This document shows, in pieces, positions 1 to 7,700 of a stretch of DNA of 12,391 nucleotides. The stretch covers positions 1-12,391 of the forward strand of contig CALZHW010000108.1 in NCBI GenBank assembly GCA_945787125.1. The letters run 5' to 3'. Below the pieces are notes generated by a model, which searched no databases, had not been told where the DNA came from, and saw nothing but the letters and a program-made list of their open reading frames with translations. The first letter of the stretch is position 1. Each line of letters starts with the position of its first letter. A program made the position numbers and the translations under genes. This stretch comes from an uncultured Ectothiorhodospiraceae bacterium. Its GTDB lineage: Bacteria; Pseudomonadota; Gammaproteobacteria; S012-40.

Positions 1-1576
1 CGATGATGACGCCGCTGAAGAAGCCGCCGCCACCCTGGCAACCGTCGACAGTGACTTTGGCCGCACCACCGACCCTGTACGCATGTACATGCGAGAAATG
101 GGCACCGTTGAATTATTGACCCGCGAAGGCGAAATCAAGATTGCCAAGCGCATCGAAGCCGGCCTCGGCCAGGTTTACAAAGCCCTGGGCAACTTCCCCA
201 ACAGCATCGCTATCCTCATCGAAGGCTATATCCAGATCGAAGCCGGCGAAACTAGTCTGGCCGATTTCATTCGCGTCTTTGCCGATCTTACTGATGAAAT
301 TGCGCCACCTGCCAGTGCCGCCAGCAAATCTGACGACGATGATGATGAAAAACCAGTCGATACCGGCCCGGATCTGGAAGAAGTCCGCGCCTGCATGAAA
401 ACGATATCCACGCTATACACCAAACACCAGAACCTGGTCAAAAAGAGCGGTCTCAACGAGCCGAAACTAAAAGAGCTACGCGAAGAAACATCTGAAGCCT
501 TTCTTGCATTCAAATATTCACCAGCCTTCATTATCACCCTGGTCAAGAACCTGCGCGCAGTCGTTAACGAGATCCGCACTCATGAACGCATCATCATGAA
601 CATCTGCGTCAACGAAGCACATATGCCACGCAAGGAATTCATTACTTCATTCCCTGACAATGAAACAAATCTCGACTGGTTTGACCAAACAGTCAACTCA
701 AACGAATCATATGTAAAGGTTCTGCAGGAGCACGAAGACGAAATCCGCAGCGCCCAGAACAAACTGGTGGAGATTCAAGAAACCTGTAGCCTCACCATCA
801 CCGACATTAAAGATATCAACCGCATGATATCGATCGGAGAAGCCAAGGCCCGCCGCGCCAAGAAAGAGATGGTCGAAGCGAACCTGCGCCTGGTTATCTC
901 CATCGCCAAGAAATACACCAACCGCGGCCTGCAGTTCCTCGACCTGATCCAGGAAGGCAACATCGGCCTGATGAAAGCCGTCGATAAATTCGAATACCGT
1001 CGCGGTTACAAGTTTTCGACCTACGCCACCTGGTGGATTCGTCAAGCCATCACCCGTTCGATTGCCGACCAAGCTCGCACCATCCGTATTCCGGTGCACA
1101 TGATTGAGACCATCAACAAACTCAACCGTATCTCGCGTCAGATGTTGCAAGAGATGGGACGTGAAGCCACACCAGAAGAACTGGCCGAGCGCATGGAAAT
1201 GCCAGAAGACAAGATCCGTAAAGTACTCAAGATCGCCAAAGAACCAATTTCAATGGAGACACCAATTGGTGATGACGAAGACTCAAGCCTCGGCGACTTC
1301 ATCGAAGACGGCAACGTCATGGCACCACCTGACTCAGCCACCTTTGAAGGCCTGAAAGAGGCGACCACCGACGTCCTCGAAGGCCTCACCGCACGTGAAG
1401 CCAAAGTCCTACGGATGCGTTTCGGCATCGACATGAACACCGACCACACGCTGGAAGAGGTTGGCAAACAGTTCGACGTCACCCGTGAACGTATTCGTCA
1501 AATCGAAGCCAAAGCACTGCGCAAACTGCGCCACCCAAGCCGCTCTGAAAACCTGCGCAGCTTTCTGCAAGATTAG
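1..1576 (+). CDS. rpoD: RNA polymerase sigma-70 factor RpoD, 5'-truncated at the window edge (reading frame begins at nt 2)
   Basis: The frame-2 translation begins [52 protein letters not shown]. It continues through region 2 ([73 protein letters not shown]). It ends with region 4 ([55 protein letters not shown]), which is a canonical primary-sigma C-terminus. There is no start codon inside the window. The nested ORFs on both strands are artefacts. Confidence 0.97.
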
Positions 1577-1583
1577 GCAAACA

Positions 1584-1625
1584 AAAAAATCCGCCTCATT
1601 GTTGTTAATGAGGCGGATTTTTTAT
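1584..1625 (+). terminator. rho-independent terminator of rpoD
   Basis: The stem ATCCGCCTCATT pairs with AATGAGGCGGAT across the loop gttgtt, followed by TTTTTTAT, beginning 8 nt after the rpoD stop (1574-1576). Confidence 0.9.
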
Positions 1626-1676
1626 CTTGCTGGTTAGCGCTATAAACACACGCTATACTACGCAGCTTCCAAATAA

Positions 1677-1753
1677 GGGCCTGTAGCTCAGTTGGTTAGA
1701 GCAGTGGACTCATAATCCATTGGTCGAGTGTTCGAGTCACTCCAGGCCCACCA
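1677..1753 (+). tRNA. ileX: tRNA with anticodon CAT, most likely tRNA-Ile2 (lysidine-modified, ileX-like); elongator tRNA-Met not excluded
   Basis: It has a cloverleaf structure. The acceptor pairs GGGCCTG with CAGGCCC and is followed by the discriminator A and an encoded CCA. The D-arm is GCTC-AGTTGGTTA-GAGC. The anticodon arm is GTGGA-CTCATAA-TCCAT (anticodon CAT). The variable loop is TGGTC and the T-arm is GAGTG-TTCGAGT-CACTC. The C4 and C5 acceptor bases and the TGGTC variable loop resemble E. coli ileX more than metT. The position directly downstream of rpoD matches the E. coli rpoD-ileX synteny. Confidence 0.9.
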
Positions 1754-1845
1754 TATAAATCAAAGGCTTACGCGGACTGTGCACGAAAGCATAGTTGGTC
1801 CGCCTTCTTAGCCGAAGCACACCGGTAGGCGCCCTTCAGATAAAT

Positions 1846-1880
1846 AGCCAGCCCAAACCTATAGGGCTGGCTTTATTATT
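1846..1880 (+). terminator. probable rho-independent terminator downstream of the tRNA
   Basis: AGCCAGCCC pairs with GGGCTGGCT across the loop aaacctata, followed by TTTATTATT. Confidence 0.6.
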
Positions 1881-1967
1881 AACCCCACCCATTAACAAAA
1901 TCAACAAGTTAGACAATATAATACATCAGCTTTTAAAGCCCCACTTAGAAACATTGAAAAATAACTC

Positions 1968-2012
1968 TTGACGCACACCCTTATTTTTACTAATTTCTGT
2001 AATAACAGAAAC
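1968..2012 (+). promoter_or_regulatory. sigma-70-type promoter (TTGACG-17-TAATTT) overlapped by the palindromic operator ATTTCTGT-AATA-ACAGAAAC (1993-2012)
   Basis: The -35 element is TTGACG (1968-1973). After a 17-nt spacer the -10 element is TAATTT (1991-1996). An 18-nt perfect inverted repeat, TTTCTGTAATAACAGAAA (1994-2011), overlaps the -10 and the likely +1, which is the classic autorepressor geometry. It lies 17 nt upstream of the regulator's ATG. Confidence 0.55.
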
Positions 2013-2028
2013 AACTGAAGATTAAGAA

Positions 2029-2556
2029 ATGAAGCTGACACCTGTAATGGAAAAATATATTCTTCACTGGGGAGAAATGGGTACCCGCTGGGGTGTTAAT
2101 CGTACCGTGGCACAGATCCATGCGCTGCTCTTCTTGTCTAGCAGGCCATTAAATGCTGAGGAGATTACTGAGACCCTAGGGGTTGCCCGCTCTAATGTAA
2201 GCACCAGTATTAAAGAACTGCAATCCTGGGGCCTGCTCAAAACTGTTTCCCAGATGGGAGATCGACGCGAGCACTTTTCGACAATGAAGGACCCCTGGGA
2301 GTTGTTCTACACCATTATGGAAGGCCGAAAACAGCGGGAGCTTGATCCAACCATGACTGTATTACGTGAGTGTGTGCTTGAAAGTGAGATTGATAATGAA
2401 ACCCCCGAAGAGGTGAAGGCTCGCATTAAAGATGTACTGGAGTTCATGGAAACGCTTGATACCTGGCACGACCAAATAAAAGACTTACCAAAATCGACTC
2501 TTTTAAAGCTAATCAAGCTAGGCGCTAAGGTTAAGAATTTTCTGGGCAAGACATAA
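2029..2556 (+). CDS. GbsR-family (MarR-like winged-helix, COG1510-type) transcriptional regulator
   Basis: The N-terminal sequence HWGEMGTRWGVNRTVAQIHALLFLSSRPLNAEEITETLGVARSNVSTSIKELQSWGLLK matches the GbsR/OpcR family signature (WG.NRT.AQIHALL ... ARSNVS ... L..WGL). The protein is 175 aa and sits next to a palindromic operator. Confidence 0.8.
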   Translation: MKLTPVMEKYILHWGEMGTRWGVNRTVAQIHALLFLSSRPLNAEEITETLGVARSNVSTSIKELQSWGLLKTVSQMGDRREHFSTMKDPWELFYTIMEGRKQRELDPTMTVLRECVLESEIDNETPEEVKARIKDVLEFMETLDTWHDQIKDLPKSTLLKLIKLGAKVKNFLGKT

Positions 2557-2574
2557 CTATTTTTTCGCCTATGA

Positions 2575-2594
2575 ATTTCTGTTAATACAGAAAT
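2575..2594 (+). promoter_or_regulatory. second copy of the palindromic operator (ATTTCTGT-TAAT-ACAGAAAT) in the promoter region of the downstream operon
   Basis: A perfect 8-4-8 inverted repeat lies 25 nt upstream of the ATG at 2620. The RBS AAGGAG is at 2605-2610. A possible -10 element, TATGAAT, is at 2570-2576. The half-sites are identical to those of the operator at 1993-2012. Confidence 0.6.
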
Positions 2595-2619
2595 CAAAGA
2601 AATAAAGGAGATTCACATT

Positions 2620-3006
2620 ATGAATTCACTCACCCTTTTCATTATCGAAGTTCTGCTTTGTTTTGGTATTAGTATTTCGGTGATTTATTTACTCAAGCCA
2701 TTACTGCGTGATGTCCTTGTCGAGACCTGTGGCACACAAACACGGGCTGAGTTTTGGGTCATGTTTACCCAGTTGATGTTGATTATCTCGCCATTACTAA
2801 TTGTGATCTACTTTGCCCCCACTCAAGGGCACGACGCAATAAATGCCGCCGAAGCAATACAGAACACATTATTTAGAAGTTTACTAGGGGATTTTATAGC
2901 CCTGATGATGATTGGCCAGGTTATCTGGAAATCAATCCAACGCGAACCTCAACTAAATGAAACTCATGTTGATACGCAACTTGAATCAAGTGAACTGGAA
3001 AAATAA
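2620..3006 (+). CDS. small hypothetical integral membrane protein (about 3 TM helices)
   Basis: The ORF has a strong RBS (AAGGAG). It has hydrophobic stretches LTLFIIEVLLCFGISISVIYLL, FWVMFTQLMLIISPLLIVIYF and LLGDFIALMMIGQVIW. I recognise no family. Confidence 0.6.
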   Translation: MNSLTLFIIEVLLCFGISISVIYLLKPLLRDVLVETCGTQTRAEFWVMFTQLMLIISPLLIVIYFAPTQGHDAINAAEAIQNTLFRSLLGDFIALMMIGQVIWKSIQREPQLNETHVDTQLESSELEK

Positions 3007-3007
3007 T

Positions 3008-4291
3008 ATGAATGTACTTATTACAGGTGCCAGCGGTTTCATTGGTAGCCATATTACCCAGACACTGATTAAGGATGGGCACATCGTTACTGTTTGTGTG
3101 CGAATTCCTAAACTAGCCCAACAACGCTGGCCAAGCGCTCACGCCATCACAACCGACTTCAGTAAAGATCACCATTCATCTGAATGGTTGCCACGCCTTG
3201 ACGATATCGACGTTGTTATCAATGCCGTTGGCATTATCCGTGAAACCGGCTCACAAACCTTTGAAGCACTACACACTGCGGCCCCTTGTGCTTTGTTCAA
3301 GGCTTGTGAGAAAGCAGGTGTAAAAAGAGTCATTCAAATTTCAGCACTAGGTGCGGATGAAACTGCCTTTAGCCAATATCACCTTAGCAAACGCGCTGCC
3401 GATGAATGCCTCATGGAATTAAACGTAAATTGGTCAATATTAATGCCATCGATAGTTTACGGTCCTGGAGCCAAGAGCATGACCTTTTTTAGAGCCTTGG
3501 CGTCCTTACCATTGACGCCAATTATTGATAAGGGTGATCAGCCAGTACAACCTATTCATATAGATGATCTTATACAAGCAGTATCACAGATCATTCAGCC
3601 AGAGACATCTGGCCAACATCAAATCGAATTGGTTGGCCCTAAGGCTATTACGATTAAAGAGATTTATTCACTACTACGCCATTGGCTGGGCTTGGGAAAT
3701 GCAAGGTTCATTTCACTACCCTACCAACTCACACTCATTGCTGGGCGTTTAGGTGGTTTTCTTGGCAACACACCGATGACAACAGAGTCCGTCCAAATGC
3801 TGCGCAAAGGCAATACAGCTGACGTCACTCCATTTATTAAACAGTTTGGCTTTGAGCCCATTAGCTTTGAACAAGCACTGATAAATATACCGGCACAGCA
3901 GACTGATCGCTGGCACGCCGGTCTTTATTTCTTAAAACCGTTATTACGATTTTCTATCGCTTTTATATGGATCTTCACTGGCATCGTTTCTGCCTTTGTT
4001 TTCCCGATAGAACAAAGCTATGCCATGCTGGCCAAAGCGGGAATTACTGGAATCTGGGCGCCAATAATGCTCTATGGAGCAGCAGCTACAGACCTTACAT
4101 TGGGCTTGGCGACACTAATGGCATATCGCCTACCTATCGTTGTATCGATACAGATTGCAGTAATTATTCTCTATTCGATAATTATCACCTTTTCACAGCC
4201 TGAACAGTGGATACATCCATTTGGCCCGGTAAGTAAAAATATTCCATTTATTGTTGCAACGCTTACCATGCTCGTGCTGGAGAGAAAGTAA
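3008..4291 (+). CDS. NAD(P)-binding SDR/NmrA-like oxidoreductase fused to a C-terminal DoxX-like membrane domain
   Basis: The sequence from the ATG at 3008 begins MNVLITGASGFIGSHI (a Rossmann GxxGxxG). It has the YHLSK (YxxxK) catalytic motif and SIVYGPG. The C-terminal 140 aa or so are multi-TM (FIWIFTGIVSAFVF...PIMLYGAAATDLTLGLATLMAY...IAVIILYSIIITFSQPEQWIHPFGPVSKNIPFIVATLTML) and are homologous to the stand-alone ORF at 5815-6207. The ORF-track start at 2957 overlaps the previous gene and is less likely. Confidence 0.75.
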   Translation: MNVLITGASGFIGSHITQTLIKDGHIVTVCVRIPKLAQQRWPSAHAITTDFSKDHHSSEWLPRLDDIDVVINAVGIIRETGSQTFEALHTAAPCALFKACEKAGVKRVIQISALGADETAFSQYHLSKRAADECLMELNVNWSILMPSIVYGPGAKSMTFFRALASLPLTPIIDKGDQPVQPIHIDDLIQAVSQIIQPETSGQHQIELVGPKAITIKEIYSLLRHWLGLGNARFISLPYQLTLIAGRLGGFLGNTPMTTESVQMLRKGNTADVTPFIKQFGFEPISFEQALINIPAQQTDRWHAGLYFLKPLLRFSIAFIWIFTGIVSAFVFPIEQSYAMLAKAGITGIWAPIMLYGAAATDLTLGLATLMAYRLPIVVSIQIAVIILYSIIITFSQPEQWIHPFGPVSKNIPFIVATLTMLVLERK

Positions 4292-4764
4292 TGGACTACG
4301 AAACCCTTAAGTGGCTCCACATATTAAGCTCAACACTATTGTTTGGCACAGGTCTTGGCAGTGCTTTTTATAAGTGGTGCGCAGACCGCTGCGGTAACCT
4401 TCAAGCCATTTCCCATACCAACCGAATCGTTGTCATTGCGGATTGGGTTTTCACCACACCGACAGTGATCATTCAGCCAGTGACTGGCGTGCTACTGGTA
4501 AACACAATGGGAATCGCACTTACTGAACCGTGGCTGCTCGCTACATATATTCTTTACGCTATTGCCGGTGGTTGTTGGCTCCCTGTTGTCTGGCTGCAAA
4601 TCCGTATGCGGGATCTCTCCCTACAAGCTATACAAAAAAACACCCATCTTGATGACACCTATCACCGCCAAGCTCGCCTTTGGTTCTGGTTAGGCATGCC
4701 TGCATTTACAGCTATGGTGATTATCTATTTTCTGATGGTATTTAAGCCAACCATCGGTATATAA
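4291..4764 (+). CDS. DUF2269-like integral membrane protein
   Basis: The N-terminus MDYETLKWLHILSSTLLFGTGLGSAFY resembles the KWLH-type start I recall for the DUF2269 family. It has four predicted TM segments. Its start (TAATG at 4289-4293) overlaps the upstream stop, which indicates translational coupling. Confidence 0.6.
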   Translation: MDYETLKWLHILSSTLLFGTGLGSAFYKWCADRCGNLQAISHTNRIVVIADWVFTTPTVIIQPVTGVLLVNTMGIALTEPWLLATYILYAIAGGCWLPVVWLQIRMRDLSLQAIQKNTHLDDTYHRQARLWFWLGMPAFTAMVIIYFLMVFKPTIGI

Positions 4765-4774
4765 GGAGTACAGA

Positions 4775-5392
4775 ATGTCGAATATTAAAGAACCTGTCAT
4801 CAAGCAAGCATTAGGTGAAAGCTGGGAAGAACTTGCCGAAATCGTCAAGCAACACTATGACATCACCCCAGGTGAATCCTCTAAAATGACCATCAGAGGC
4901 GTAATGGATGAAGTCTATCACTCAAAGATCGCCAAGCTTTTTCTACTGCCCGGTAGAATCTTTGGCGCATTGGTACCCTATAAAGGAACGGACATCCCAA
5001 CCGAGGTACGAAACTGGACATCTGAAAATAATCACAAGGCGATGTTTTGGTATAGAACTCTGGACTTCCCTAATAAACCACCATTGATTTTTGCCTCTCG
5101 TATGGAACACATAACAGATGATGAGATTATTGAATATGTACGTTATGGCATGGGTATACGCATGGGGATGTCGGTTGATGATGGTGCTTTAATTTTTAAG
5201 AGCAAAGGTTATGTGTGGAAGATTGCCGGTATCACAATACCAATTCCAACATGGTTTATCCTGGGTGATGCAGAAATCATCGAAAAAGAAATTTCAAAGA
5301 ATGAGTTTTACATTGACTTCAATATGATCCATCCATTGTTCGGCCGAACATTTTCATACTCAGGTACCTTCTCAATTGCGGAGGATAAATAG
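4775..5392 (+). CDS. soluble hypothetical protein, DUF4166-like
   Basis: The 205-aa ORF begins 11 nt after the previous stop with the RBS AAGGAG (4765-4770). It has no TM segments. The family assignment is from memory of DUF4166, which is often adjacent to NAD-binding dehydrogenases, and is tentative. Confidence 0.5.
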   Translation: MSNIKEPVIKQALGESWEELAEIVKQHYDITPGESSKMTIRGVMDEVYHSKIAKLFLLPGRIFGALVPYKGTDIPTEVRNWTSENNHKAMFWYRTLDFPNKPPLIFASRMEHITDDEIIEYVRYGMGIRMGMSVDDGALIFKSKGYVWKIAGITIPIPTWFILGDAEIIEKEISKNEFYIDFNMIHPLFGRTFSYSGTFSIAEDK

Positions 5393-5393
5393 A

Positions 5394-5825
5394 ATGGCAT
5401 TACCTCCAAACATGAAAGAAGACTGTAAAGTAATTTTGTTTGATGGTGTGTGTAAGCTGTGCAATTTTTGGAGTCAATTCATAATAAAAAATGACCGAAA
5501 AATGATATTCATGCTTGCATCAGTGCAATCATTAGAAGGCCAACAAATACTCAAACATTTCAATATGCCGACAGACCATTTCGACACCATGTTATATGTG
5601 GAAGGCGATCAGTCATTTGAAAAAAGTGATGCCTTTCTTAAAATCGTCAACCAACTAGATCTCCCATGGAAATTATTAAATATATTTCGATTCCTGCCAG
5701 GGTGGTTTCGCAATTGGTTATACGACCGAATTGCGTTAAATCGGTATGCATTATTTGGAAAGTATGACCAGTGCTTACTGCCAACGCCAGACCACGCAAA
5801 AAGGTACTTAAGAAATGGCGACTAG
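5394..5825 (+). CDS. DCC-family thiol-disulfide oxidoreductase (DUF393)
   Basis: The sequence VILFDGVCKLCNFW carries the D-x-x-C-x-x-C motif of DCC/DUF393 proteins. The preferred start is the ATG at 5394, preceded by GGAGGA at 5380-5385, rather than the upstream in-frame ATG at 5376, which overlaps the previous gene. Confidence 0.75.
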   Translation: MALPPNMKEDCKVILFDGVCKLCNFWSQFIIKNDRKMIFMLASVQSLEGQQILKHFNMPTDHFDTMLYVEGDQSFEKSDAFLKIVNQLDLPWKLLNIFRFLPGWFRNWLYDRIALNRYALFGKYDQCLLPTPDHAKRYLRNGD

Positions 5826-6207
5826 TTTAGTAAAAGTCAATCATATTGGCCGTTATGGATTGGCTTTTGTTTTTTTCTACCATGGTTTAATACCCAAAAT
5901 ACTCTGGCCTAGCCAGGTAGAAACTAGCTTAGTAATGGCGCATAATTTTGGTGTGTCTGCGACAATAATTTCGTCCGCTGCAGGTGCAATAGAAATTCTG
6001 CTAGCGCTTACTATTGTTTTTTATATAAAATCCTTAATACCTGTGTACATCGCTGCTCTCATGCTCATAGTTCTACTATTTGATGTTTATTTGGTGATGC
6101 CTGAATTGCTAACAGAAGCTTTCAACCCGGTTTCAACAAACATTTCGGCCTTAGTGTTGTGTTATTTGATATACATTACTCAAACGCGAAAAGCGATTAC
6201 ACTATAA
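5815..6207 (+). CDS. DoxX-like family membrane protein (stand-alone paralog of the C-terminal domain of the 3008-4291 gene)
   Basis: The 130-aa ORF has four hydrophobic helices. YGLAFVFFYHGLIPKILWP...PELLTEAFNPVSTNISALVLCYLIY aligns with the fusion protein's FIWIFTGIVSAFVFP...PEQWIHPFGPVSKNIPFIVATLTML. Its start overlaps the previous gene by 11 nt. Confidence 0.65.
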   Translation: MATSLVKVNHIGRYGLAFVFFYHGLIPKILWPSQVETSLVMAHNFGVSATIISSAAGAIEILLALTIVFYIKSLIPVYIAALMLIVLLFDVYLVMPELLTEAFNPVSTNISALVLCYLIYITQTRKAITL

Positions 6208-6290
6208 ATGCTAGACAAACTCCCATTCCATTGAACTCACCACTACTACATCCTGTTAAGATGGCCCGGCCTATTCCGAGCCACCACTTC

Positions 6291-7445
6291 TCACAACTTC
6301 ATTGTTGAAGGACTTTTAACTAAGTCCTTCATTACACCTTCCAGACCGGAGTAGACATTGATATTGCCGATACGCTCGGTCACTTTTTCCAACACTTCCA
6401 ACTCCTTTAGACGCATTAAGGTTGGGTTGCCTTCAATCATCTTGGCAGTATTATGCAACGAGCGTGTCGCCGCGGTCTCTTCACGCCGCTTGATCAAATT
6501 AGCCTCCGCCGCCTTTTCTGCCTCAACAACCTGATTGAGGATGGTCTTCATATCACCAGGCAAAATGATGTCACGCACACCGACACTCTTGACCGAGATA
6601 CCGTGCTCCTCAACTCGCTGACGGATACCGTCAGTCATCACCTTGTTCAGTGCATCTTTATCGTTCAGCAACTGGTCCAAAGTTTTGGTGCCTACTGCTT
6701 CACGCAGCTGCAACTGAAACTCCCGGTACAGGTAATCGTTGAAATCCGCCAGCTTGCTCTGAGCCAGCTGTGGATCTTCCACCTTATAAGCAGCAGAAAG
6801 GTTAAGCCTCAGGCTCACCCGATCTTTAGTCAAAATCTCCTGACCACTGACCTCGACATTCTGCAAACGCAGGTCAATGTGCTTGACCACAACATTACGA
6901 TGATACTTCCAGTAGCCGTAGCTACCTGGCTGCAACAACGCTTCCAGTTTGCCGTTGACCAACAGTAGACCGACATGATTATCTTCCACTTCGGTGTAGT
7001 AGATGGTCTTAGACGCACTGCGCACCAACTGTGTGTTATGACCGCGGCCCAGCAGTGCCAGCAACGCCTTCGACACACGGAAGTCCTCAGTGATATCAAC
7101 ACGCTTCAACTCGATCTTCTCTAGACCCTTCCAGTAGATTTTGAAACTACCTGGCGCGACGATATCGACCAGCAGACCATCGTGGTACAACAGCCCCACC
7201 TCATAGTCGCTGAGCTGATACGCCTCAAGGTAACCTCGAGTCTTATCGGCAAAGGTAGAAACCAAAAACTTACCCAGACTGTGATCCAACTCATGACGAG
7301 TGATATCAAAGCGCTCAGTTTTTACATTGCCAAGCAGATCGACGTAACGATACCTTCCTGGCTCAAGGACACCCGCAAAGCGATTCTTCTTAAACAGGAA
7401 GGCCCTTTCGTTATCTGCAACATCTATTCTTTTAACGAAAAACAT
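6291..7445 (-). CDS. cytoplasmic SPFH/band-7 (stomatin-prohibitin-like) domain protein
   Basis: The C-terminal half (ILTKDRVSLRLNLSAAYKVEDPQ...ISVKSVGVRDIILPGDMKTILNQVVEAEKAAEANLIKRREETAA) is an SPFH core followed by a coiled-coil tail. The preferred start is the ATG at 7445 (MFFVKRIDVADNERAFLF), preceded by GGAGG. The ORF-track start at 7484 is GTG. There is no N-terminal TM helix. Confidence 0.75.
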   Translation of the reverse strand: MFFVKRIDVADNERAFLFKKNRFAGVLEPGRYRYVDLLGNVKTERFDITRHELDHSLGKFLVSTFADKTRGYLEAYQLSDYEVGLLYHDGLLVDIVAPGSFKIYWKGLEKIELKRVDITEDFRVSKALLALLGRGHNTQLVRSASKTIYYTEVEDNHVGLLLVNGKLEALLQPGSYGYWKYHRNVVVKHIDLRLQNVEVSGQEILTKDRVSLRLNLSAAYKVEDPQLAQSKLADFNDYLYREFQLQLREAVGTKTLDQLLNDKDALNKVMTDGIRQRVEEHGISVKSVGVRDIILPGDMKTILNQVVEAEKAAEANLIKRREETAATRSLHNTAKMIEGNPTLMRLKELEVLEKVTERIGNINVYSGLEGVMKDLVKSPSTMKL

Positions 7446-7700
7446 AATGCCTCCTAAATTATTATTACTTTTAAAGTCGGGCACCCTCCATTGCAGGGGC
7501 GGAATATGACATTCAACAAACAGGAATGACTACTGAGAGGTTAATCGAATCATTGCCCAATATTCGTCTGTACAAGCCCGAACATACCTACCAATGCTCG
7601 AAGAACTTCAACGCCATTCGCGCCCACCAAAGCGGTCACACTCGGTCACTGCCACGTTGTTTAAAGTGAAATACCACTTCACATCAAACAAGGGTGCCCT

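Follow-up and report, generated by a model that had tools for sequence, protein, structure and literature searches.

An anchor-free SPFH/Band-7 protein and its tRNA-like RNA partner at the end of an rtcB-rtcA unit in an uncultured Ectothiorhodospiraceae bacterium

The locus and its features

We analyzed a stretch of 12,391 nucleotides (nt) from an uncultured Ectothiorhodospiraceae bacterium (contig CALZHW010000108.1, positions 1 to 12,391), referred to below in its whole length as the window, in which a gene for a protein of the SPFH/Band-7 superfamily follows rtcB, rtcA and a non-coding RNA (ncRNA) that resembles a tRNA (Table 1). The encoded protein is stomatin-like and has no membrane anchor. 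When its relatives are considered, the nearly universal and tighter partner of the SPFH gene is the tRNA-like RNA, not rtcBA, and the RNA-SPFH pair occurs within units that appear to be controlled by RtcR and sigma-54 and that contain RtcB, RtcA, RlaP or a CCA-adding-type nucleotidyltransferase.

A preliminary description, made from the letters of the window, had placed the SPFH gene at 6291-7445, on the same strand as rtcBA. Both statements are right, as rtcB, rtcA and the SPFH gene all lie on the minus strand, and the start codon is supported in two ways. The open reading frame (ORF) that contains the gene extends over 6291..7484, and a longer product initiated at GTG 7484 was considered and ruled out, because the Shine-Dalgarno sequence and the N-termini of homologues both fit ATG 7445: homologues of 379-388 residues share the MFFVK-type N-terminus that results from this start. 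A non-coding gap of 658 nt separates rtcA from the SPFH gene downstream of it.

Table 1 Features of the SPFH locus in the window, ordered by position. Residue numbers refer to the SPFH protein; HMM, hidden Markov model.
Feature	Position	Strand	Evidence
GC-rich 10-bp hairpin just 3' of the SPFH stop codon, weak U-tract	6260..6285	-	folding, -18.4 kcal/mol
SPFH/Band-7 ('slipin family') protein gene, 384 residues, last of the unit	6291..7445	-	ORF list, AGGAGG, Band_7
Long C-terminal helix, residues 297-364	6354..6557	-	AF2 helices 297-339 and 341-364; Foldseek
SPFH alpha/beta core, residues 195-296	6558..6863	-	
Beta module 3, residues 148-194, start of the Band_7 domain proper	6864..7004	-	repeat HMM, independent E-value 3.1e-27; inside the Band_7 match
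Beta module 2, residues 73-120	7086..7229	-	repeat HMM, independent E-value 3.9e-23
Beta module 1, residues 4-49, copy of the SPFH N-terminal beta sub-domain	7299..7436	-	repeat HMM, independent E-value 4.9e-22
Remaining conserved leader down to the SPFH start	7446..7715	-	conserved blocks, alignments A2 and A5
Shine-Dalgarno AGGAGG, 4 nt 5' of the SPFH ATG	7450..7455	-	sequence; (T)AGGAGG kept in aligned relatives
Second, partial tRNA-like element	7716..7767	-	helices with compensatory changes (RNAalifold; also in distant loci)
tRNA-like RNA, fits the description of 'b7a-tRNA'	7766..7844	-	Rfam tRNA; own covariance model R1, 68.8 bits
19-bp AU-rich near-perfect hairpin from the rtcA stop codon, no U-tract	8059..8105	-	-23 kcal/mol, z -5.06
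rtcA (RNA 3'-phosphate cyclase)	8104..9114	-	Pfam RTC, 1.3e-77; NCBIfam NF003246, 412 bits (cut-off 352)
rtcB (RNA ligase)	9170..10408	-	Pfam RtcB, 2.3e-130
Sigma-54-type promoter TGGCACGGCAGCTGCA 5' of rtcB	10466..10481	-	sole close match in the window
rtcR (sigma-54 activator of the rtc operon), divergent	10627..12216	+	NCBIfam NF038308 RtcR, 787.6 bits (cut-off 650)

Fold of the SPFH protein and its missing membrane anchor

Pfam Band_7 (PF01145) covers residues 152-323 of the protein with an E-value of 1.7e-29 and 103.5 bits (cut-off 23.6). The search for homologues yielded at least 8000 candidates at E <= 1e-5, the best of which reached 1.6e-234; NCBI labels the close relatives 'slipin family protein', and in a family profile search the closest solved relatives are stomatins (Pyrococcus, E 4e-28; human, about 2e-25). 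The AF2 monomer model presents the fold of the SPFH superfamily, that is, an alpha/beta fold followed by a long C-terminal helix, and Foldseek aligns it over ~260 columns to the cage subunits of stomatin, HflK/C, prohibitin and erlin. Cage subunits of QmcA and flotillin are also found among the whole-model matches, as is the major vault protein (MVP), the latter with a weaker score and more columns. In solved SPFH assemblies, the long C-terminal helix builds the walls of the ring or cage. As the helix of the window protein is homologous to those of the solved cages, a ring or cage may be expected here too, although it should be noted that the model is of the monomer only.

The highest Kyte-Doolittle value of any 19-residue segment in the window protein is 1.15, and no hydrophobic or transmembrane segment was found in 119 homologues, in which the maximum is 1.46 against a threshold of 1.6. 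The lack of an N-terminal hydrophobic segment, which had already been noted for the window protein, is therefore, as judged by hydropathy, a trait of the family and not an artefact of annotation. Moreover, no NfeD partner is present among the annotated ORFs of the window, and neither NfeD nor FtsH was found among the recurrent neighbour clusters described below.

The SPFH beta sub-domain is present in two additional copies within the N-terminal 147 residues, with short helices after each; these count as additions because Band_7 itself starts with the third copy. Exactly three modules are recognized by the repeat HMM in the window protein, of ~45 residues each and with a period of about 72 residues. 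In pairwise comparisons, hhalign relates all three with probabilities of 96-97% and E-values of 1e-9 to 1e-11 (97.0% for module 1 against module 2 and 96.6% against module 3), while modules 2 and 3 (hhalign E 2e-11) are also related by blastp, with 36% identity and an E-value of 6e-7. Module 1 has five strands in the AF2 models, and the N-terminal modules, when taken alone, find their structural counterpart in the N-terminal region of prohibitin, HflK, QmcA and stomatin, and not in the MVP repeats. The preliminary description had recognized two SPFH-entry-like motifs and proposed an internal N-terminal duplication. The repeat is real and modules 1 and 3 are indeed homologous, but module 2 was missed and module 3 is the start of the Band_7 domain, such that one should speak of three modules and of a triplication.

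The number of modules, as counted by the repeat HMM, varies from three to five in the family. Three are found in the window protein and in the Microbulbifer, E. coli and Planctomycetota proteins, four in relatives of 451-456 residues and five in relatives of 516-544 residues. Longer members with four or five modules are exemplified by survey loci L013 (6001-7632) and L101 (6001-7548) and by proteins P0058, P0062 and P0063.

The tRNA-like RNA and its linkage to the SPFH gene

The Rfam tRNA model matches the window at 7769-7840 (minus strand) with 40.8 bits, 323 nt upstream of the SPFH start. The RNA has a 6-nt anticodon loop, only four acceptor-stem pairs and no CCA, and ARAGORN, when run on the window, did not call it. 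An identity as YrlA or Y RNA was considered and rejected, as the Rfam YrlA model gives 19.6 bits against a gathering score of 69. The partial element that adjoins it is made of an anticodon-stem-loop-like hairpin (7753-7767) with the 7-nt loop CUGUUAA (GUU), a small hairpin (7731-7742) and a perfect T-arm, GGGGTTCGACTCCCC, at 7716-7730; it has no D-arm or acceptor. A further T-loop-like motif is present in 63 of 93 spacers. We also observed a conserved non-coding block 5' of the tRNA-like RNA (7845-8040, minus strand), which includes the hairpins GGCCGGGCAAAATGGGTTGTTCGGCC and GGCA-N5-TGCC as well as the motif CTGGCRCA.

To place the pair in a wider context, 116 loci were surveyed, of which 32 come from species-representative genomes, four from look-ups of the exact protein and 80 from metagenome contigs; more than 550 loci were found in metagenomes. 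Two different bases of counting should be considered when referring to the results: the tRNA-like RNA was counted in the 97 loci whose sequence reaches 700 nt or more beyond the SPFH start on the upstream side, and rtc genes were counted in the 34 loci that have an identity of 43% or higher and flanks of 4 kb or longer on either side. A tRNA-like match on the same strand within 1 kb upstream of the SPFH gene was obtained in 96 of the 97 loci (93 by nhmmer and three more by the covariance model), with a median gap of 392 nt (range, 191-840 nt). RtcB is encoded in 17 of the 34 well-flanked loci, some RNA-repair enzyme in 20, and an RNA-repair enzyme, an HNH gene or a tRNA array in 25. As RtcB is absent from about half of these loci, it is not an obligate partner. 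The linkage to the rtc genes, on which the preliminary description was built and for which it had proposed a neighbourhood survey, with a lack of conserved linkage in other genomes as the outcome that would speak against it, does recur across genomes and in four gene orders. What has to be revised is the choice of partner, with 96 of 97 loci for the tRNA-like RNA against about half for RtcB.

Whereas the D- and T-arms of the SPFH-proximal element are nearly invariant across loci L001-L116, its anticodon, as assigned by ARAGORN, is not conserved (CAT in 18 loci, GAT in 10, TTT in seven and many others). The calls include Met, Ile, Lys, Thr, Asn and others, and the loop is often non-canonical or the element is not called.

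The RNA-SPFH pair is kept intact in at least four gene orders. The order of the window, rtcB-rtcA-RNA-SPFH, is shared by L001-L007 (with no rtcA in L006), L035 and L045. The order rtcB-RNA-SPFH-rtcA is found in L034, and in Microbulbifer the pair likewise lies between rtcB and rtcA. In L010, L012, L013 and L025 the order is RNA-SPFH-rtcB-rtcA, and the pair precedes rtcB in Pseudoalteromonas and others as well; L010 carries a TGGCAC-N5-TTGT site 5' of its tRNA-like elements, SPFH gene, rtcB and rtcA. Finally, RNA-SPFH-RlaP is the order in Citrobacter and E. coli. Unbiased clustering of the neighbouring ORFs recovered RtcB (39 loci), an HNH nuclease (HNH_5; 21 loci), RtcR (20), RtcA (18), an XRE-type regulator (10), a family of 335 residues with no Pfam match (nine), RlaP (PF10127, 'RNA repair pathway DNA polymerase beta family'; eight) and a CCA-adding-type nucleotidyltransferase (PolyA_pol plus HD; seven).

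Members of the ~335-residue family are encoded in L008 (7156-8205), L051 (1271-2278), L056 (4802-5809) and six more loci, and show no match in Pfam, PADLOC or PHROG; in L008, L048, L051 and L056 the gene stands directly 3' of the SPFH gene. Nearly all Planctomycetota-type loci retain the tRNA-like element despite their scarcity of rtc genes. Copies of the Rfam Acido-Lenti-1 RNA and a group II intron were also observed near the SPFH gene in Planctomycetota loci (L026 2737-3006, L019 5731-5777 and L022 2787-4732).

In 20 of the 97 loci, five to 24 ordinary same-strand tRNA genes lie directly 5' of the SPFH gene, and the arrays end at that gene. Arrays of 11-24 tRNA genes that end at the SPFH gene (~6001) are seen in L043, L050, L055, L059/L060, L063, L068, L074, L075, L085, L086 and L100. 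Loci with arrays usually contain an HNH nuclease and often RtcB, RlaP or the CCA-adding-type enzyme, and the arrays look like the horizontally transferred 'L-arrays' described in PMC8421152.

The enterobacterial version

A slipin locus is present in 1629 of 5426 complete E. coli genomes (~30%). In E. coli (for example strain WAT, L119 4001-7416), slipin and RlaP sit between yjbD and lysC and are followed by a zeta-toxin gene; a sigma-54 promoter, CTGGCACGCTTCTCGCA, is located ~310 nt upstream of slipin and is followed by a leader of ~300 nt. In Citrobacter freundii (L118 4254-8919), rtcR is divergent from the promoter CTGGCACGCTTCTGGCA, which lies ~310 nt 5' of slipin, and a RelE/ParE-XRE pair is found together with rtcR upstream of slipin. 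The enterobacterial leader retains only a T-arm-like remnant of the RNA (12.2 bits with the covariance model).

Transcription signals around the SPFH gene

Sites equivalent to the sigma-54-type promoter upstream of rtcB are present in L001, L003, L004, L034 and L045. Between rtcA and the SPFH gene no sigma-54 match was accepted, and a simple scan of the minus strand from 6100 to 8300 gave no sigma-70-like site. Two sigma-54 candidates in the spacer were rejected, namely TTTGGCATGACTTGCC, in which the GG-to-GC spacing is 2 nt short and which covaries as a hairpin (GGCA/TGCC) in relatives, and 'CTGGCRCA', which has no conserved -12 GC. The hairpin at 7689-7702, followed by UUUGAUG, was likewise rejected as a terminator of the ncRNA, with a z-score of +0.56 against shuffled sequences and a U-run that is not conserved. 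The AU-rich hairpin that begins at the rtcA stop codon has no counterpart in the aligned relatives L001-L005 and L007, whose gene order is the same (alignment A2); possible readings of it are a short inserted palindrome, a site for RNase III or a terminator with partial effect.

With these two hairpins as caveats, the earlier observation that no strong intrinsic terminator separates rtcA from the SPFH gene is essentially right. An independent promoter and terminator that cut the gene off from rtcBA had been named as evidence that would contradict the proposed unit; our scans gave neither a promoter-like site nor a canonical terminator. Since no such signals were found between rtcA and the SPFH gene, co-transcription with rtcBA from the RtcR promoter is plausible and offers the simplest reading of the sequence. 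The SPFH gene can be taken as the last of the unit because its stop codon is followed by the GC-rich hairpin, which is probably the end of the transcription unit, and by a convergent DoxX_3 gene ending at 6207. This gene closes a run of plus-strand ORFs (2957-6207) that converges on the SPFH gene and shows no evident tie to the rtc unit; the run comprises ORFs 2957-4291 (444 residues) and 4291-4764 (157 residues), followed by genes for a DUF4166 protein, a DCC1-like thiol-disulfide oxidoreductase and DoxX_3.

Proposed function and alternative explanations

The pair in the window is best explained as a member of the known module of RtcB-type repair systems in which a Band-7/SPFH protein is combined with a tRNA-like RNA. 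In the mechanism that we propose for it, the RtcR-dependent sigma-54 promoter would transcribe the pair as the tail of an rtcB-rtcA-RNA-SPFH unit, and damaged tRNA fragments would activate RtcR and so induce the module along with rtcBA. By means of its C-terminal helix, the SPFH protein would self-assemble as a homo-oligomer, forming a ring or cage that is soluble and that would bind the cognate tRNA-like RNA. The resulting ribonucleoprotein (RNP) would then act as a cofactor or scaffold when RtcB and RtcA handle broken tRNA or rRNA, in analogy to Ro60(Rsr) with its Y RNA. Taken as a whole, with the RNP mechanism included, we consider this explanation to have an even chance of being correct.

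Several points weigh against it and should be considered. The data consist of sequence, fold and synteny, from which we infer assembly, RNA binding and an effect on repair, and co-transcription in the window is deduced only from absent consensus matches to promoters and terminators. The SPFH protein has no recognisable RNA-binding domain, and net basic charge is limited to module 1 (+4 in the window protein, with a family mean of +2.5). Rtc genes are lacking from the surrounding 4-6 kb in about half of the well-flanked loci and in 10 of 11 Planctomycetota loci (36-40% identity). Furthermore, growth, virulence, motility, biofilm and peroxide assays of P. aeruginosa revealed no phenotype after deletion of the SPFH gene in its rtc locus, although the assays considered from that study include no RNA-damaging stress (PMC13086221).

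A different role for the RNA would be that of a cis-acting leader. The tRNA-like RNA and the spacer would in this case belong to the SPFH mRNA, as an RNase P/Z site, a stabiliser or a stress-sensing attenuator, and the SPFH protein would act on a target other than RNA, for example in the quality control of proteins or membranes when translation is under stress. The RNA invariably precedes the SPFH gene on the same strand, within the narrow range of distances given above, the entire spacer down to the Shine-Dalgarno sequence is conserved, and no canonical terminator lies between the RNA and the SPFH gene. In E. coli and Citrobacter, the sigma-54 promoter precedes the RNA element, which therefore is physically a 5' leader of the slipin mRNA, and it is this enterobacterial version that retains only the T-arm-like remnant. 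However, the stems of the D-arm, T-arm and anticodon are kept by compensatory changes, as in a free-standing tRNA, and in many loci a long array of ordinary tRNA genes ends with this element. A processing signal would also leave the recurrent RtcB, RlaP and CCA-adding-type enzymes unexplained. We regard a cis-acting role as unlikely. We assign a similarly low probability to the pair being a conflict module that moves along with arrays of supernumerary tRNA genes. In such a module, a tRNA mimic that cannot be charged would act as a decoy for ribotoxins such as anticodon nucleases, or would sense them, and toxin, decoy or damaged tRNAs would be sequestered by the SPFH cage, which would shield translation beside spare tRNAs and repair enzymes. 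Such a role would account for the 20 of 97 loci with same-strand tRNA genes directly 5' of the SPFH gene, for the proximal anticodon that varies freely and is often non-canonical, and for the zeta-toxin and RelE/ParE-XRE genes beside the enterobacterial copies. The HNH nuclease recurs in 21 loci, as it does in horizontally transferred L-arrays, and the idea that operonic tRNAs may serve as sponges for toxin RNases has been published (PMC8421152). On the other hand, the ORF, domain and tRNA scans found no tRNA array, HNH gene or toxin gene in the window. A role in phage defence, as suggested in the preliminary description, obtained no support, since no family of PADLOC-DB 2.0 matches the SPFH protein at E <= 0.01 and no homologue was found in 50,697 phage records. 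Carriage by plasmids was also considered and rejected, as the only plasmid matches are chromids or mis-labelled chromosomes that are predicted to be non-mobilizable. It should be noted that the conflict module overlaps with the explanation that we prefer and does not exclude it.

Two further possibilities concern the particle itself. If the protein were an ordinary membrane-associated scaffold of the HflK/C or QmcA kind, found near rtc genes by chance or by hitch-hiking, this would agree with the SPFH fold and long helix that are common to membrane scaffolds, and with the NCBI family name, which merely reads 'slipin family protein'. Yet none of the 119 homologues has a hydrophobic hairpin or a transmembrane segment, the recurrent neighbours include neither NfeD nor FtsH, and the match as an HflK equivalog failed (TIGR01933, 40.4 bits against a cut-off of 159.4; NF008181, 23.9 against 660). 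As the association with a tRNA-like RNA in 96 of 97 loci, together with four rtc gene orders, cannot be due to chance, we consider a membrane scaffold to be very improbable. At the other extreme, a soluble, membrane-free SPFH cage, with a wall lengthened by three to five beta modules, might hold tRNA-like RNAs or tRNAs inside or display them, along with repair enzymes, thereby forming a bacterial vault-like RNP compartment for tRNA quality control that is possibly an evolutionary cousin of the particle of MVP and vault RNA. We mention this as a speculative extension of low probability.

Significance

The linkage and its interpretation as a scaffold are already in the literature and are not new as a discovery. 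What the present analysis appears to add are the three- to five-fold repeat of the beta module, the family-wide absence of the anchor, the ranking of the RNA above RtcB as the partner, the bipartite nature of the tRNA-like RNA, the attachment to tRNA arrays and the common E. coli version. To our knowledge, every solved SPFH assembly except the vault is a membrane-bound cage, and for this reason an SPFH particle that is soluble and linked to a tRNA mimic, if true, would be a new use of the SPFH fold. Of the components that recur in bacterial RNA-repair operons, the pairing is one of a small number that are not known to have had a functional test, and the question is tractable, as the module is found with a clear sigma-54 promoter and RlaP in ~30% of complete E. 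coli genomes. In P. aeruginosa, a deletion mutant of the SPFH gene in the rtc locus already exists (PMC13086221).

Comparison with known systems

The structural relatives of the window protein and the functional analogy proposed above lead to different systems. Cages of stomatin/slipin, HflK/C, QmcA, prohibitin, erlin and flotillin form domes that are anchored in the membrane and cover a patch of it. From these, the window family differs in having no anchor or NfeD partner, in its extra beta modules and in its RNA-repair context. With MVP, the likeness is one of organisation, homology not being demonstrated, and Pfam Vault and MVP_shoulder gave no match on the SPFH protein. In Salmonella, the rsr-yrlBA-rtcBA operon encodes Ro60 (Rsr) with the Y RNAs YrlA and YrlB and is controlled by RtcR and sigma-54. 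The likeness is a functional analogy, as both systems have a protein that forms (or, in our case, is predicted to form) a ring or cage and an ncRNA that mimics tRNA, encoded with RtcB and RtcA in an RtcR/sigma-54 operon, which in the window is a probable one. The folds, TROVE/vWA in Ro60 and SPFH here, are unrelated, and no TROVE gene is present among the scanned ORFs of the window or the recurrent neighbour clusters.

Burroughs and Aravind are said to have generalized, in 2016, the arrangement seen earlier in Pelobacter (see below) and to have proposed that Band-7 and Ro/TROVE proteins are alternative scaffolding cofactors of RNA ligation that act with cognate RNAs, and the RNA of the Band-7 type was reportedly named b7a-tRNA. 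As summarised in 10.1101/312249, which cites Burroughs and Aravind 2016, a Band-7 protein and a predicted ncRNA that strongly resembles a tRNA occur beside RtcB, this combination is proposed to be interchangeable with Rsr/YrlA, and b7a-tRNA has not been experimentally validated. The window has the same features, with rtcB and rtcA upstream on the same strand and a tRNA-like RNA adjoining the Band-7 gene, and nothing essential differs. The scaffold for RNA repair that was suggested in the preliminary description thus restates this hypothesis, in the form in which the citing paper conveys it (10.1101/312249), and is not new.

In Pelobacter carbinolicus, a 'mutant tRNA-Asn' (Pcar_R0061) is followed by the stomatin-like Pcar_2837, rtcA1 and rtcB, with rtcR divergent (Aklujkar et al. 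2012, PMC3543383). The components and the regulator are the same as in the window, and the tRNA-like RNA similarly has a defective acceptor end or anticodon loop while cloverleaf pairing is kept. The gene order differs, being RNA-SPFH-rtcA-rtcB in Pelobacter and rtcB-rtcA-RNA-SPFH in the window, and the authors considered the product to be a membrane protein (PMC3543383), whereas the window family has no hydrophobic segment. In P. aeruginosa, the gene of PaFlo8 (PA14_60630) is embedded in the rtc locus, according to a 2026 study (PMC13086221). It likewise lies within rtcR/rtcB/rtcA and has a patchy phylogenetic distribution, and it may belong to the three-module subfamily of the window protein. 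Beyond these Pelobacter, Band-7/b7a-tRNA and PaFlo8 reports, our search for experimental literature that joins RtcR or RtcB with SPFH, slipin or stomatin returned nothing.

Long tRNA arrays, finally, have been reported to have HNH and rtcB neighbours and to be induced under translational stress (2021, PMC8421152). The text of that report never mentions SPFH, HflC or prohibitin, and uses 'band' for gel bands only. The window differs from such arrays in that it has no array but one complete and one partial tRNA-like element, whereas many of its SPFH relatives stand at the 3' end of an array, with the same HNH and RtcB neighbours.

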